Shown piece after piece: positions 2,988-8,409 of a DNA stretch of 15,110 nt. The stretch's first letter is position 1. Every line of letters begins with the position of its first letter. The notes under the pieces are model-generated. The model saw nothing but the letters and a program-made list of their open reading frames with translations. It was not told the origin of the DNA and searched no databases. Source of the DNA: Promethearchaeota archaeon (GTDB lineage: Archaea; Asgardarchaeota; Lokiarchaeia; Sigyniarchaeales; SOKP01); assembly GCA_016839585.1 (NCBI GenBank), contig JAEOTZ010000087.1, forward strand, positions 1 through 15,110, given 5' to 3'. The position numbers were made by a program, and so were the translations under genes.

Positions 2988-4970
2988 TTAACCAACTTCT
3001 ACATCCATCTTTTTCCGTTCTTCAAGCAAGGCATCTACTACGGAAGGATCGGCTAATGTGGTTACATTCCCTATTTCTGTTCCAGCTGCAATTGCTTTTA
3101 GGATTCTTCTCATAATTTTGCCACTTCGCGTCTTAGGTAACGCATCCGCAAATTGAATTACATCTGGCTGAAATACGGGACCTATCTCTTTTCTAACATG
3201 CATCCGAATCTCTTTGGATAGTTTGGCTGATTTTTCTACCCCCTGCATTAATGTAATGTAAGCCCAGATGGCCTGCCCTTTAATTTTATGCGGAAATGGA
3301 GCGACAGCGGCTTCTGCGACCTTTGGATGACTTACAAGAGCAGATTCTACTTCCATAGTTCCTATTCGATGCCCACTTACTTTAATGACATCATCTAATC
3401 GCCCAAGAATCCAATAATAACCATCTTCATCTCGTCGTGCTCCATCACCAGTATAATAGTATCCAGGATATTTTTCAAAATATGTTGATTTAAATCTCTC
3501 TGTATCACCCCAGACATCCCTTAACATTCCCGGCCAAGGTTGAGCTATAGCAAAATAGCCTCCCTCATCTGGTTCAGTAACTTCATCACCCTCGAGGTCG
3601 AATATAATTGGCTTAATACCTAAAAATGGCATGCAGCAGGAACCCGGTTTAGTTGGCGTTGCTGTAGCAATTGGTGTCATTATAAAGCCCCCTGTCTCTG
3701 TTTGCCAGTAAGTATCAACAATTGGGGCTTTACTTTTGCCGATTATATTAAAGTACCATAACCAAGCTTCTGGATTTATTGGTTCTCCAACAGTTCCTAA
3801 AACTTTTAAAGAACTTAGGTCATGTTTTTTAACTGGTTCATCTCCATATCTCATCAAGGCACGAATTGCTGTAGGGGCAGTATAGAAATGAGTTACTTTA
3901 TTACGTTCTACAATATCCCAGAATCTATCCACATCAGGATAAGTCGGAACTCCCTCAAACATTAATGTAGTTGCACCATTAGCTAAAGGTCCATATACTA
4001 TATAGGAGTGACCGGTAATCCAACCAATATCTGCAGTACAGTACCAAACATCACCATCATGGTAATTAAATACGATTTTATGTGTAAACGACGTAAATAA
4101 TATATAACCTGCAGTTGTATGTTTAACACCTTTCGGTTTTCCAGTTGTTCCACTTGTATATAAAATAAATAAAGTATCCTCAGAATCCATTACTTCAGGT
4201 TCGCATTCATCGCTCATCCCTTCAATAAAATCGTGATACCAAATATCCTTATCAGTATGCGGGACTTCTCTTCCAGATCGTTTTACTACGATAACATGCT
4301 CCATTGTTGGAACATCATCAATAATTTGAATCACATCAGCTATTTTTGGATAGAATTTCCCTGCTCTTAAGGTTTCATCGCTGGTGAATAAGAGTCGTGA
4401 GTCAGAATCATCGATTCGGTCCTTTACAGCTTCTTTTGAGAAACCACCAAAAACTATAGAATGAATAACTCCAAGGCGAGCACAAGCAAGCATTATTATT
4501 GCTAATTCAGGAACCATAGGTAACCAAATTGTTACACGATCTCCCTTTTTCAAACCAAGTTTTTTCATACCATTGGCAACTTTATTGACTTCTTTTAATA
4601 ATTCTGTGTAAGTATAAGTTTTAACATTTCCTGGCTCGTCAGCTTCCCAAATAAGAGCCACTGTATCGCCTTTTCCAACTTTTATATGCCGGTCTAAACA
4701 GTTGTAAGCAACATTTAGTTTACCTCCGACAAACCATTTACCAGGAAACAAATCTGTTTTTTCCCATACTTTTTCATAAGGCTCGAACCAGTCAAGAGAT
4801 TTCGCTTGGTCATCCCAAAAACCTTCCATATCTTCAATTGATTGTTTGTAAAGTTTCTCATATTCTTCTAAAGACATGCCAGATTTAACAAATTCCTTGT
4901 TTAACTTAATAGGATCAAAAATGCGTGTTTCAGTAAGAATACTTTCCATCTTTTTGTCTTCTTCAGACAT
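2988..4970 (-). CDS. acs: Acetate--CoA ligase (AMP-forming acetyl-CoA synthetase)
   Basis: 660 aa with ANL motifs YTSGTTGKPKG, WYCTADIGWITGHSY, DTYWQTETGG, GRLDDVIKVSGHRIG and PKTRSGKIMRR (acetylatable Lys618, nt 3117-3119). SD-like GAAGTGA upstream. Confidence 0.97.
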   Translation of the reverse strand: MSEEDKKMESILTETRIFDPIKLNKEFVKSGMSLEEYEKLYKQSIEDMEGFWDDQAKSLDWFEPYEKVWEKTDLFPGKWFVGGKLNVAYNCLDRHIKVGKGDTVALIWEADEPGNVKTYTYTELLKEVNKVANGMKKLGLKKGDRVTIWLPMVPELAIIMLACARLGVIHSIVFGGFSKEAVKDRIDDSDSRLLFTSDETLRAGKFYPKIADVIQIIDDVPTMEHVIVVKRSGREVPHTDKDIWYHDFIEGMSDECEPEVMDSEDTLFILYTSGTTGKPKGVKHTTAGYILFTSFTHKIVFNYHDGDVWYCTADIGWITGHSYIVYGPLANGATTLMFEGVPTYPDVDRFWDIVERNKVTHFYTAPTAIRALMRYGDEPVKKHDLSSLKVLGTVGEPINPEAWLWYFNIIGKSKAPIVDTYWQTETGGFIMTPIATATPTKPGSCCMPFLGIKPIIFDLEGDEVTEPDEGGYFAIAQPWPGMLRDVWGDTERFKSTYFEKYPGYYYTGDGARRDEDGYYWILGRLDDVIKVSGHRIGTMEVESALVSHPKVAEAAVAPFPHKIKGQAIWAYITLMQGVEKSAKLSKEIRMHVRKEIGPVFQPDVIQFADALPKTRSGKIMRRILKAIAAGTEIGNVTTLADPSVVDALLEERKKMDVEVG

Positions 4971-5246
4971 ATCATTTCACTTCTTTGAATTTTATTATAT
5001 TTGAATTATTTTATGTTATAATTTTTGTTAATACATTAAAAATTTTAAAGATTCATTTTCAGTCTCATCATATTTAAAATTTGTATTTTAATAAGACGAG
5101 TATAAGTCAAAAAATAGATATATTAAATCATTTTTAAACATTTTATTTATAATTTCAAAAAAATTATATGGATAAAAGAGTATATAATAAAACTATTCAA
5201 TATAATTTTAATAAAATAAAATCTATTTTTAGCGTGAGTATCAAAA
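4971..5246. promoter_or_regulatory. Divergent promoter region between acs and the CoA-transferase-like/GNAT gene
   Basis: 276-bp very AT-rich intergenic region. TATA-like TTTAAATA on the minus strand (5071-5078) and TATATAAT on the plus strand (5181-5188), each preceded by an A-rich BRE-like run. Exact sites are uncertain. Confidence 0.45.
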
Positions 5247-7157
5247 ATGAAAAATTTAGATTTTCGAGACCATGATTGGAGAAAGAAATGGACAGATAAA
5301 GAGATCACAGCAGAAGAAGCAATTAGAAAAATTATCCCAGGCAATAGAGTATTCATAGATTCTGGGTGTGCAGAACCACAATTATTAACTATGGAATTAA
5401 TTAAGCATTCAGAAAAGTTGATCGATACTGAAATTCTCCATTTTTTAACAATAGGTCCTGAAAAATATTTCAAAGATAAAGCTGAAGATCTTTTCCGACA
5501 TAATGTGTTTTTTATTGGAGAAACTCTTCGTGATGAAATAAATAAAGGACAAGCAGATTATACACCGATTTATGCCAGTGAAATTCCATCATTATTTGAG
5601 ACAGGGAGAAAACATATTGATGTAGCTCTTATCCAAATTACGCCACCAGATCCTTATGGATTTTGTTCTTTTGGAATTAATGTTGATATAGCAAAACCAA
5701 TAGCTCAATCATCTAATATCACAATTGCAGAAATTAATCCCCAGATGCCAAGAACATTAGGTAATAGCTTTATTCATATGAAAGAAATTGATTATTATGT
5801 TTATAATGATACACCATTACATGAGTTTCATTTTGATGAACCGGATGAAATTGCGAAAAGAATAGGACAGAATTTAGCAAATTTAATTGAGAACAAATCA
5901 ACGATACATGTTGGTTTTGGTGATTTACCAAATGCCGCTTTGAAGTTTTTAGGGGAAAAAAAGGATTTAGGCATGCATTCTCATTATATCACAGATAATA
6001 TAATCCCTCTTATTGAAGGAGGAGTTTTAACCTGTAGGAAAAAGAATTATCATCCAGAAAAAATTATAGCAAGTTATGCTTTAGGAACTAAGAAATTATA
6101 TAATTTTGTAAATAATAATCCATACATCGAGTTTTATCCCTCTGATTATGTTTGTAATCCTAGATTTATTGGAATGAATAAAAAACTAGTTTCAATAAAT
6201 TCTGCTCGCCAAATCGATCTAACTGGGCAAGTAAATGCTTCTACAGAAGGATATCGATTTTATTCTGGACTTGGTGAAACCATTGATTTTATGAGAGGAG
6301 CCGCTTTTTCTAAAGGAGGCAAACCGATTATAATTATTCCATCAACATCTCGAGACGGTAAAAAGTCAAGAATAGTCTCTCATTTAGATGAAGGGGCAGG
6401 GATTATGTTATCTCGGGGGGATGTCCATTATGTAGTTACTGAATGGGGTGTTGCGTATCTCCATGGTAAATCAATTAGAGAACGGATAGTTGAATTGATT
6501 TGTATTGCACACCCAAAATTCCGTCAATCATTATTAGACGAGGCTAAGAAACTAAATTATGTATATTCTGACCAGGTACTTCCATGTGATGATAATGGGA
6601 ATATTTGTCTATATCCCTCTCAATATGTAACTATTTATGAAACACACGATAAACAAAAGATAAGAATACGCCCTGTTAAAACTACGGATGAGCCATTATT
6701 AAGAGATTTATATTACTCATTGAGTGAGAGGGATAGATATTTAAGATTTTTTGAACTAAAAAAAGAATTTACTCATTCTAAAACACAATTTGAAGTAAAT
6801 ATTGATTATAACAATGTTTTTTCCATTGGAGCATTTATAGGTGAAATTGGAAATGAAAAGATGATAGGAAATGCTACCTATTATTTAAATCCTAAATTAA
6901 ATATGGGAGAGTATAGTTTCCTTGTGAGAGATGATTATAGAGGCAAAGGAATTGGTGGATTTCTTTATCAACATATAATTATTATCGCAAAAGAAAGAGG
7001 ATTAAAAGGACTTTATGGAAATATTCATATTCAAAATAAAAGTGCTGTCAGAATAATTAGAACGGGTGGATATACTAGAATAACTCCTCCGGGAAATCTT
7101 GATGGAAAAGAACTGTTCTATGAAGTCTTTTTTGATAAAGAAGATTCAACTAATTGA
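5247..7157 (+). CDS. Acetyl-CoA hydrolase/4-hydroxybutyrate CoA-transferase-like domain fused to a C-terminal Pat-like GNAT acetyltransferase
   Basis: The N-terminal ~440 aa carry family motifs (AEINPQMPRTLG, INSARQIDLTGQV, DVHYVVTEWGVAYLHGKSIRER, IAHPKFR). From aa ~456 there is a GNAT domain (IRPVKTTD, SLSERDRYLRFF, GEYSFLVRDDYRGKGIG). Confidence 0.92.
   Translation: MKNLDFRDHDWRKKWTDKEITAEEAIRKIIPGNRVFIDSGCAEPQLLTMELIKHSEKLIDTEILHFLTIGPEKYFKDKAEDLFRHNVFFIGETLRDEINKGQADYTPIYASEIPSLFETGRKHIDVALIQITPPDPYGFCSFGINVDIAKPIAQSSNITIAEINPQMPRTLGNSFIHMKEIDYYVYNDTPLHEFHFDEPDEIAKRIGQNLANLIENKSTIHVGFGDLPNAALKFLGEKKDLGMHSHYITDNIIPLIEGGVLTCRKKNYHPEKIIASYALGTKKLYNFVNNNPYIEFYPSDYVCNPRFIGMNKKLVSINSARQIDLTGQVNASTEGYRFYSGLGETIDFMRGAAFSKGGKPIIIIPSTSRDGKKSRIVSHLDEGAGIMLSRGDVHYVVTEWGVAYLHGKSIRERIVELICIAHPKFRQSLLDEAKKLNYVYSDQVLPCDDNGNICLYPSQYVTIYETHDKQKIRIRPVKTTDEPLLRDLYYSLSERDRYLRFFELKKEFTHSKTQFEVNIDYNNVFSIGAFIGEIGNEKMIGNATYYLNPKLNMGEYSFLVRDDYRGKGIGGFLYQHIIIIAKERGLKGLYGNIHIQNKSAVRIIRTGGYTRITPPGNLDGKELFYEVFFDKEDSTN
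7108..7157 (+). repeat. Direct repeat copy 1 (3' end of the CoA-transferase-like/GNAT gene)
   Basis: 7108-7147 matches 8311-8350 at 36/40 nt, with a perfect 24-nt core TATGAAGTCTTTTTTGATAAAGAA at 7119-7142. Confidence 0.9.
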
Positions 7158-7305
7158 TTAATCAGCTAAAATAACTCAAGAAAACTTCTAAAAGGCTTTT
7201 TTATGAAGGAGTAAATAGATTGAACCTTATCTAAATTGCCAAAATTTAAATCTTAATTAAAATACATTTATTTACTTTTTTAATATAGTTTTTAAATAAA
7301 AATTA

Positions 7306-7318: not shown

Positions 7319-8221
7319 ATAGTTATTATAAATTATGAAGGAAAATTTGATGACAATTATTATCTTATAGATGGAATGACAATGGGATTACCCAAATTTC
7401 TTTCAATTTACATTGTTGAAAACAATGGTATGCGACTAATGATTGATGTTGGGGAAGCATTAAAAGCTCGAACAATCATAAAAAAACTCAAAGATTTCGG
7501 TCTTTATCCTATTCATAAAATCGTCTTGACTCATTCTCATTGGGATCATGCTCAAGGGCTCTCAAAATTGGTTAACCTAATGAAAGACTTGGATGTAGAA
7601 ATTTTAGCTTCAGAAAACGCGGTTGAAAATTTAAAACATCCAGAAAAAACGATTGAAGGATACGAGGGAATTAAGTCATATCCTTTTGAAGAAGAGGTTA
7701 CACCATTGAGAGAAGGTGATTTCATAGATTTAAATGGATTAGAATTAGAGATCAAGAATTTTTTTGGGCATACGATGGATTCTATTGGAATTTTTGACAA
7801 AACAAATAGAAATATATTCGTAGGAGACGCATTCATTATGAGATTAGACCAAGATGCTTTTTTTATACCTCTCATGCCCCCTGATTTCCATGAACAAGAA
7901 CTCCTCAAGACTTTTGTTAAATTACGAGAAATGAGAAATGAATTGAACTCCATCTCTTTAGCTCATTTTGGAGTATGGAAAGATAATCACTTTGAACAAA
8001 TTTTAAATGAAATGGAAGATCTCTACTTTAATACGAAAACCTCACTAATAGAATGGTATAATGAAAATCCATCAATTGAGGTTATAAATGGTAAGTACTG
8101 TAGAAAATTTTTGTCCGCCTCTAAATTTTGGAACGAGAAAGTATTTACATTTCTTATAGATTATATGATAAACGGTTTAAAGTTGAGTGGGTTTATTGAA
8201 GGAGAAAAAACAGTATATTAA
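7319..8221 (+). CDS. Metallo-beta-lactamase-fold hydrolase (first ATG at 7376; probable true start at ATA 7319)
   Basis: Motifs THSHWDHAQG (HxHxDH), GHT, GDA and AHFG. The frame is open back to ATA 7319, directly after an in-frame TAA and a strong SD. Confidence 0.88.
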   Translation: MVIINYEGKFDDNYYLIDGMTMGLPKFLSIYIVENNGMRLMIDVGEALKARTIIKKLKDFGLYPIHKIVLTHSHWDHAQGLSKLVNLMKDLDVEILASENAVENLKHPEKTIEGYEGIKSYPFEEEVTPLREGDFIDLNGLELEIKNFFGHTMDSIGIFDKTNRNIFVGDAFIMRLDQDAFFIPLMPPDFHEQELLKTFVKLREMRNELNSISLAHFGVWKDNHFEQILNEMEDLYFNTKTSLIEWYNENPSIEVINGKYCRKFLSASKFWNEKVFTFLIDYMINGLKLSGFIEGEKTVY

Positions 8222-8310: not shown

Positions 8311-8360
8311 AAGAATTATTTTATGAAGTCTTTTTTGATAAAGAAAATTCCATGGAATAA
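8311..8360 (+). repeat. Direct repeat copy 2: orphan remnant of the GNAT gene 3' end
   Basis: Encodes ELFYEVFFDKENSME* versus ELFYEVFFDKEDSTN* in the intact gene. The stop codon is at the same offset (1203 bp). Confidence 0.88.
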
Positions 8361-8409
8361 ATAAACAATATTTTTATCTTTCTTCTTTAATTATCAAATT
8401 TGTTGATTT

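Follow-up and report, generated by a model that had tools for sequence, protein, structure and literature searches.

The textbook example of how bacteria control metabolism by acetylating proteins is the reversible acetylation of acetyl-coenzyme A (CoA) synthetase (Acs), and the enzymes that write this mark in archaea are poorly known. In type I and type II Pat enzymes, the GNAT domain is controlled by a regulatory domain that is an inactive homologue of acyl-CoA synthetases and binds acetyl-CoA (PMC8556138, PMC12184503). A CoA-transferase regulatory domain is not among types I to V in the GNAT classifications of 2021 and 2025 (PMC8556138, PMC12184503), and a full-text search found no literature study of a CoA-transferase-GNAT fusion. 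Here, we describe such a fusion, P0001, encoded in a 15,110-nucleotide stretch of a Promethearchaeota genome (contig JAEOTZ010000087.1; this whole stretch is referred to below as the window). The gene lies at 5247 to 7157 on the forward strand next to acs and, according to the list of open reading frames and the translation, encodes 636 amino acids comprising a CoA-transferase-like domain and a Pat-type GNAT domain. The catalytic residues of the first domain have been replaced, and we propose, with a probability of about 0.6, that P0001 acetylates a lysine of Acs in the manner of Pat enzymes and that its N-terminal domain, no longer a transferase, would serve as a regulatory module that senses acyl-CoA or CoA.

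The 4-hydroxybutyrate-CoA-transferase-fold domain, catalytically remodeled, spans residues 10 to 433 (5274 to 6545; phmmer, Foldseek), and the Pat-type GNAT domain spans residues 465 to 612 (6639 to 7082; phmmer, Pfam); both are on the forward strand, as are all residues of P0001 located below. Pfam assigned AcetylCoA_hydro to residues 12 to 188 (PF02550, E value of 5e-30), AcetylCoA_hyd_C to residues 280 to 433 (PF13336, 2e-59), and Acetyltransf_1 to residues 508 to 604 (PF00583, 4.9e-9). The top solved relatives of residues 10 to 440 were 9vag, 3eh7, 2oas, 3d3u, and 3gk7 (phmmer, E values of 1e-116 to 1e-97), all of them 4-hydroxybutyrate CoA-transferases, and RipA was matched as well. An AlphaFold2 model built with 76 sequences in the alignment reached a predicted local distance difference test score (pLDDT) of 91.3 and a predicted template modeling score (pTM) of 0.89, and Foldseek superimposed it on 3gk7, 2oas, and 3eh7 with template modeling scores (target) of 0.92 to 0.95 and root mean square deviations of 1.5 to 2.4 Å. 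P0001 did not reach any NCBIfam CoA-transferase equivalog, the best being TIGR03948 with 249.6 bits against a cutoff of 674.8, and the databases name CoA-transferase-GNAT fusions only "GNAT family N-acetyltransferase" or "acyl-CoA hydrolase/GNAT."

A sequence-only reading of the window had claimed that three active-site motifs of the domain are altered, and this was borne out by the alignments. P0001 reads DLGMHSHY in place of DLG(I/V)H(S/T)E(M), with His246 (CAT, 5982 to 5984) at the catalytic Glu; SGLGETIDF in place of SGxGGQxDF, with Glu344 (GAA, 6276 to 6278); and IHVGFG in place of LQxGIG, with His221 (CAT, 5907 to 5909) at the Gln. In phmmer alignments with the 4-hydroxybutyrate CoA-transferases 9vag, 3eh7, and 2oas (E values of 3e-116 to 4e-99), these motifs paired without gaps with DLGvHtEm, SGfGGQlDF, and LQmGIG, and the catalytic Glu has therefore been replaced by His and not shifted. 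An alignment artifact hiding another Glu could be ruled out, as phmmer and three MAFFT alignments were concordant and none of them placed another Glu at the canonical column. A fourth change goes beyond those noticed before: in place of the Asn in the motif DYVN(D)P, P0001 has Cys303 (TGT, 6153 to 6155).

These residues were related to the class I enzyme AarC, which has been dissected mechanistically and whose numbering was transferred through Escherichia coli ScpC (phmmer of ScpC against AarC, 4eud, and then MAFFT of ScpC with P0001 and canonical enzymes). By this bridge, His221 corresponds to AarC Gln267, Phe224 to Val270, His246 to Glu294, Cys303 to Asn347, Glu344 to Gly388, Thr345 to Ser389, and Phe348 to Phe392. 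His246 closes the segment His244-Ser245-His246 (5976 to 5984), of which His244 is kept family-wide, and Glu344-Thr345 (6276 to 6281) stands where GxGGQxDF has its second Gly and its Gln. In AarC, Glu294 is the nucleophile and is oriented by the carboxamide of Asn347, which provides the internal oxyanion hole; the external one is provided by the amide of Gly388, a residue described as strictly conserved across class I, and this amide also contacts the Glu294 carboxylate; and Gln267 CG, Glu294 CG, Gly388 CA, and Phe392 lie about 4 Å from the tip of a bound CoA analogue (PMC4876117). In P0001, the nucleophile, the two oxyanion holes, and the neighboring Gln have each been exchanged, and, judged from the sequence, its N-terminal domain cannot run the ping-pong mechanism of class I. 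What has been replaced, in a coordinated way and more widely than the sequence-only reading had claimed, is the whole catalytic centre. Fifty stand-alone representatives with the Glu were used to define 60 reference positions, each conserved in at least 85% of them; P0001 retains 54, and the six changes (D216N, G217K, Q221H, E246H, N303C, and G344E) are all within catalytic motifs. The Asn at the 303 column is present in 94% of the active stand-alone enzymes, and the Gly at the 344 column in all 65 stand-alone representatives.

These replacements are shared by a set of 166 orthologues (159 distinct sequences, at least 67% identical, all from one Asgard family), which we refer to as the His-type clade. 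His221 and His244 are present in 166/166, and His246 in 161/166 (Tyr in four and Leu in one; 96.9% of the distinct sequences). Cys303 was found in 165/166 with a single Ser (99.4% of the distinct sequences) and Thr345 in 162/166 (97.5%), and residue 344 is acidic in 100% (Glu in 96 and Asp in 70, or 42%), while a conservation of 97% is attained at just 42.5% of the domain positions across the clade. The changes in the catalytic centre are not sequencing noise, since they are fixed in 159 distinct orthologues. The open reading frame is intact, as the sequence-only reading had it, and is under strong purifying selection. When the remodeled domain was compared with the domain of an intact-site paralogue in the same seven genomes, the former had a median identity of 87.5% and a nonsynonymous divergence (dN) of 0.071, and the latter had 84.5% and 0.104 for the same genome pairs; the GNAT domains of both paralogues had an identity of 78.7%. 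The ratio of nonsynonymous to synonymous divergence (dN/dS) of the remodeled domain, about 0.04 to 0.07, is rough because dS was mostly saturated. The remodeled domain is clearly not decaying, and purifying selection has constrained it no less strongly than the intact paralogue. Its fold is kept, its catalytic residues are gone, and it is held by purifying selection, as is expected of a pseudoenzyme domain.

The remodeled domain can be traced to an intact ancestor. In a search of 400 genomes of the phylum, the His-type orthologues were confined to the family of the window itself (f1), and intact-site fusions about 50% identical were found in families f1 to f4, with more distant fusions in f16, f28, f31, and f32. 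The same genome encodes a paralogous fusion on contig C11 (G000 C11:19926-21737) with 52% identity, in which QMGIG, DLGIHSEVF, the Asn, and GIGGQVDF are intact, as well as a stand-alone canonical enzyme (G000 contig C41:19524-20799, L006). The latter gene reads as two overlapping frames of 338 and 111 amino acids, from a frameshift or an assembly error. In a 103-row tree of fusions, the His-type clade and the outgroup P0122, which carries His221, Phe246, Ser303, and Asp344, were grouped at 100% in the Shimodaira-Hasegawa approximate likelihood ratio test (SH-aLRT), and this group was nested with intact-site Asgard paralogues in a clade with an SH-aLRT of 98%. The His-type protein therefore arose by duplication of an intact-site fusion.

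A wider family of fusions surrounds this clade. A search for representatives with P0001 gave 12,464 matches, and among the best 150 of these about 76 were CoA-transferase-GNAT fusions of about 600 to 660 amino acids and 32 to 53% identity, from Asgard archaea and from bacteria such as Desulfobacterales. The catalytic Glu is present in 44 of these 76 fusion representatives and absent in 32, and parsimony on the 103-row tree requires at least 15 changes between Glu and non-Glu, so the catalytic Glu has repeatedly been dispensable in the fusion architecture. The acidic residue of the GNAT domain is, by comparison, retained in the 76 fusions as Glu in 58 and Asp in 15. Cys at position 303 occurs in 14/76 fusions, His at 221 in 13/76, and Asp at 246 in 14/76, and each of the three is found in 0/65 stand-alone enzymes. 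On the tree, the state of Cys303 changed at least 11 times and that of His221 at least 9 times, and this recurrence in fusions suggests selection for these side chains. In independent tree pairs, loss of Glu246 went with loss of the GG and of Asn303 in the expected direction, with no significant association (6.3 versus 1.7 for GG and 4.9 versus 0.9 for Asn303; median p of about 0.2).

Two further observations concern the relatives of P0001. A stand-alone subfamily of about 425 amino acids (13/65 representatives, including P0211, P0235, P0243, P0250, P0255, P0267, and P0271) carries Gly (HSG) where the catalytic Glu would be and His in the Asn303 column, with the GG and the Gln kept; judged by these residues, it may be another noncanonical branch of the enzyme family. 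Several fusions carry an extra N- or C-terminal region of about 330 amino acids (P0125 and P0127, 960 to 967 amino acids; P0158, P0174, and P0209, 955 to 1,013 amino acids).

The C-terminal half of P0001 has the features of a Pat enzyme. In phmmer searches of solved proteins, residues 440 to 636 matched E. coli PatZ (9it0/9isq, E value of 1e-12), the GNAT of Streptomyces lividans PatA (4nxy, 2e-12), Sulfolobus Pat (3f8k, 8e-8), and Mycobacterium tuberculosis Pat (4orf/4oll, 3e-5). The top six solved matches were all Pat proteins (two sequences of PatZ, two of the PatA GNAT, Sulfolobus Pat, and M. tuberculosis Pat), and 1vhs, which is phosphinothricin-acetyltransferase-like, ranked between the M. 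tuberculosis Pat entries. Glu555 (6909 to 6911) aligned with Glu809, the catalytic base of PatZ (AEF in 9it0), and RGKGIG at residues 565 to 570 (6939 to 6956) fits the acetyl-CoA loop motif R/Q-x-x-G-x-G/A defined in PMC8556138. The NCBIfam Pat equivalog NF058543, which models the mycobacterial enzyme, was not reached (41.6 bits against a cutoff of 460). Since the N-terminal domain has the CoA-transferase fold and is not a nucleoside diphosphate (NDP)-forming acyl-CoA synthetase, P0001 falls outside Pat types I and II.

The probable substrate is encoded next door. The acs gene at 2988 to 4970 on the reverse strand encodes an AMP-forming acetyl-CoA synthetase of 660 amino acids (TIGR02188, 946.6 bits against a cutoff of 724.95), which is the sole true Acs of the genome. 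Its Lys618 (codon 3117 to 3119, reverse strand) is the lysine of the PX4GK motif, within PKTRSGKIMRR in the translation, and was invariant in 11 orthologues in an alignment (A2) that left out the references L055 and L053, which have in-frame stops. The two genes diverge from an intergenic region of 276 bp (4971 to 5246), and this head-to-head layout is found in most orthologous loci. In 43 of the 45 orthologous genomes with a readable flank (69 to 95% identity), acs lies within 3 kb of the His-type gene; loci of only 69 to 75% identity are among these, and the linkage survives changes in order or orientation (L048 and L050) and insertions of 1 to 2.7 kb between the genes (L055, L056, and L095 to L097).

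Adjacency to acs as a trait of all fusions was considered and rejected, as the C11 paralogue and the fusions at L008 to L011 and L064 to L070 mostly have no acs nearby; it is limited to the His-type clade and some other Asgard families. In three independent loci from such families, an intact-site fusion is convergent with a 79%-identical acs (L092), two tandem fusions lie 2.6 kb from a 55%-identical acs (L088, G319:C1:1798745-1802531), and a fusion is divergent from an AMP-ligase gene (L065). Both fusions at L088 have Glu at the Gln221 column (LELGIG).

A complex of P0001 with two CoA molecules and residues 520 to 660 of Acs was predicted with a score of 0.70, compared with 0.00 for the best of three controls. 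Of 80 solved complexes, 58 scored this high, as did 2 of 110 mismatched pairs; this calibration is only rough because our prediction used its own alignments and included the CoA ligand. Contacts agreed by at least 94% between runs, and the pLDDT of the partner was at least 86. In the model, the interface is formed entirely by the GNAT domain (494 to 511, 544 to 557, 590 to 596, and 618 to 622) against Acs residues 611 to 622, with no contribution from the N-terminal domain; Lys618 is placed in the GNAT cleft, touching residues 501, 502, and 592, and Glu555 touches Acs residues 614 to 616. GNAT-Acs pairs have been examined structurally before (PMC11255334, PMC12184503), and the high score may for that reason reflect likeness to them. 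The prediction supports binding of Acs without showing it.

Together, these results lead us to the following proposal. The GNAT domain would use acetyl-CoA to acetylate Lys618 of the neighboring Acs and thereby switch it off, and other AMP-forming acyl-CoA ligases may be acetylated as well; one of the four SIR2 (sirtuin) genes found in the genome could encode the enzyme that reverses the modification. The N-terminal 430 residues would have kept the class I fold and lost CoA transfer, and they would bind CoA or acyl-CoA at the old active site and in this way control the GNAT. The sequence-only reading had suggested a pseudoenzyme ligand sensor, and the pseudoenzyme part stands: the transferase mechanism is lost, the reading frame is intact and under purifying selection, and the domain fits the place of a regulatory module as in PatZ. 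The sensor part is less firm, and ligand binding, allostery, and Acs as the substrate are what we infer.

Several observations weigh against this proposal. The retained fold-conserved residues are the sole basis on which we expect the N-terminal domain to bind a ligand, and the residues that fill the site (His, His, Cys, and Asp/Glu) are not inert and exceed the clade average in conservation, a pattern more suggestive of a newly acquired chemical function than of a passive pocket. The transferase site is fully intact in 44 of the 76 related fusions, and also in the one beside acs at L092, so that catalysis, and not regulation, may have been the original task of the domain. Much of the synteny evidence comes from close relatives that share the whole neighborhood, and acs was not found near the His-type gene in 2 of the 45 assessable genomes (L094 and L098). 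Furthermore, the adjacent acs reads as broken in L002, L051, L053, and L055: two genomes have it split at residue 314 and two others have it interrupted by in-frame stops, and the fusion gene is intact (the broken genes include those at about 3650 to 5690 in L002/L003 and 1755 to 3886 in L051). These breaks could be assembly errors, real pseudogenization, or an inserted element.

The alternative that survives best, which we regard as possible and clearly less probable than our proposal, is that the rebuilt centre is a new reactive site instead of a passive pocket, with the GNAT still acetylating Acs. It could take two forms. Cys303, His246, and Asp/Glu344 could be a triad, with His221 and His244 nearby, that forms an S-acyl-Cys from acyl-CoA and acts as a thioesterase, an acyl relay, or a covalent sensor; or His221, His244, His246, Cys303, and the carboxylate could be a metal site that binds the free CoA thiol and reads the CoA/acetyl-CoA ratio. 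Each of the four replacing residues is of a kind that classically acts as nucleophile, base, or metal ligand; they are conserved at 97 to 100% against the 42.5% of domain positions that reach 97%, and Cys303 and His221 recur in fusions and never in the 65 stand-alone enzymes. Their AarC equivalents converge, with Asn347 and the Gly388 amide both in contact with the Glu294 carboxylate (PMC4876117); by analogy with this geometry, His246 would sit between Cys303 and the acid at 344, in a Cys-His-acid layout. The model also places His244 and His246 on one strand segment, one residue apart. The exceptions tell against such chemistry, however, since four orthologue clusters have Tyr and one has Leu in place of His246, one has Ser in place of Cys303, and the nearest outgroup, P0122, has Phe and Ser at these two positions. 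The exchange of Glu and Asp at 344 would suit a partner of a His or a metal ligand but would equally suit a polar filler. To our knowledge, neither a Cys triad nor a metal site has a precedent in the CoA-transferase fold, which also counts against this alternative. Nevertheless, the nature of the four side chains and the recurrence of two of them in other fusions leave us with the view that the site may have gained a function instead of simply dying.

It is doubtful whether the N-terminal domain serves as a scaffold that binds no small molecule and acts only in oligomerization, as dimer or tetramer, or as a docking surface for substrates of the GNAT. The 4-hydroxybutyrate CoA-transferases are oligomeric, and for RipA, tight dimers and dimers of dimers are described (PMC3180442); the regulatory domain of PatZ also shapes the Acs pocket (PMC12184503); and the pTM of 0.89 implies a fixed packing between the domains of the predicted structure. 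However, a scaffold leaves unexplained why the residues of the catalytic centre alone were exchanged for a conserved polar set and the other pocket motifs were kept, and in the predicted complex all confident contacts with Acs come from the GNAT (494 to 622) and zero from the N-terminal domain.

The last alternative, offered in the sequence-only reading, that the catalytic Glu has migrated and Glu344 forms the glutamyl-CoA of a domain that is still a class I CoA-transferase, is highly improbable. In its favor, residue 344 is always acidic in the clade, and its loop contacts the nucleophile through the backbone in AarC (PMC4876117), so that a carboxylate there would lie near the thioester. Against it, Asp takes the place of Glu344 in 70/166 orthologues, an interchange unexpected for a nucleophile that has to reach the thioester; the Gly displaced by residue 344 is the very one of the external oxyanion hole, and the Asn of the internal hole has gone as well, as has the conserved Gln; and two other proteins encoded in the genome still have their canonical sites intact.

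Some other observations were made at the locus and elsewhere in the genome. The neighboring genes include TFIIB and an Arf/Rag-type small GTPase, and the nearest homologues are from organisms named Promethearchaeota and Loki-, Thor-, Hod-, and Hermodarchaeota. The final 57 nucleotides of the fusion gene (7108 to 7164) recur with 79% identity at 8311 to 8367, 1,203 bp downstream, and these repeats flank a gene with a metallo-beta-lactamase fold at 7376 to 8221. In the orthologous loci L001 and L002, a PHP-domain gene follows directly after the fusion gene. Given the repeats and this direct succession in L001 and L002, the metallo-beta-lactamase-fold gene looks like an inserted cassette that duplicated the 3' end of the fusion gene. 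A 91%-identical copy of the last 90 acs codons is found elsewhere in the genome (G000 contig C50:14967-15239), and a similar acs 3' fragment is present in L002 at 632 to 901, beyond a LAGLIDADG gene. This suggests that the acs 3' end has been duplicated repeatedly, perhaps in connection with the homing-endonuclease gene at 38 to 2974 of the window.

The locus is a natural experiment in pseudoenzyme evolution, as a stand-alone enzyme, an intact-site fusion, and a remodeled fusion are found in one genome, and these three proteins can serve as ready-made biochemical controls. If the centre were indeed a new reactive site, the acetyltransferase would have a chemical readout of the CoA/acetyl-CoA pool, and the recurrent changes from Asn to Cys and from Gln to His in other fusions would be the signature of a sensing chemistry that is widespread in this fold and has so far escaped description.

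Among known systems, the type I and type II Pat enzymes (Salmonella enterica Pat, E. coli PatZ/YfiQ [9it0/9isq], and S. lividans PatA [4nxy]) are among the closest. Like these, P0001 has a GNAT of the same subtype (E values of about 1e-12), fused to a large domain that derives from an enzyme of acyl-CoA metabolism and is without its catalytic residue, and it is linked to an AMP-forming Acs with a PX4GK lysine. In contrast to these, the regulatory domain of P0001 has the class I CoA-transferase fold and not that of NDP-forming acyl-CoA synthetases, the dead site has been refilled with His, His, Cys, and an acid, the protein is shorter (636 versus about 886 amino acids), and the host is an Asgard archaeon. 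The enzymes AbfT/Cat2 and RipA (3gk7, 2oas, 3eh7, 9vag, and 3qli) have the same two-domain fold with 31 to 40% identity to P0001, which differs from them in the absence of the nucleophile Glu, the Gln, the Asn, and the oxyanion-hole Gly and in the presence of a C-terminal GNAT. The uncharacterized intact-site fusions, including the C11 paralogue, have the same architecture as P0001, and some adjoin acs (L092); unlike P0001, they keep the Q, E, N, and GGQ, and in this genome and family they are not beside acs. In type III Pat enzymes (M. tuberculosis Pat with its cAMP domain [4orf], ACT-GNAT, and NADP-GNAT), an N-terminal sensor controls a Pat-type GNAT that acts on enzymes of the Acs family, but the sensor domain of P0001 differs from theirs in fold and in presumed ligand. 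The small GNATs LoHAT1/2 of a preprint on Asgard histone acetyltransferases are not P0001. We classify P0001 as a probable Pat-type acetylation switch with a new, remodeled sensor module, and the CoA-transferase fold would be a sixth kind of regulatory module beside the published five-type scheme of prokaryotic GNATs.

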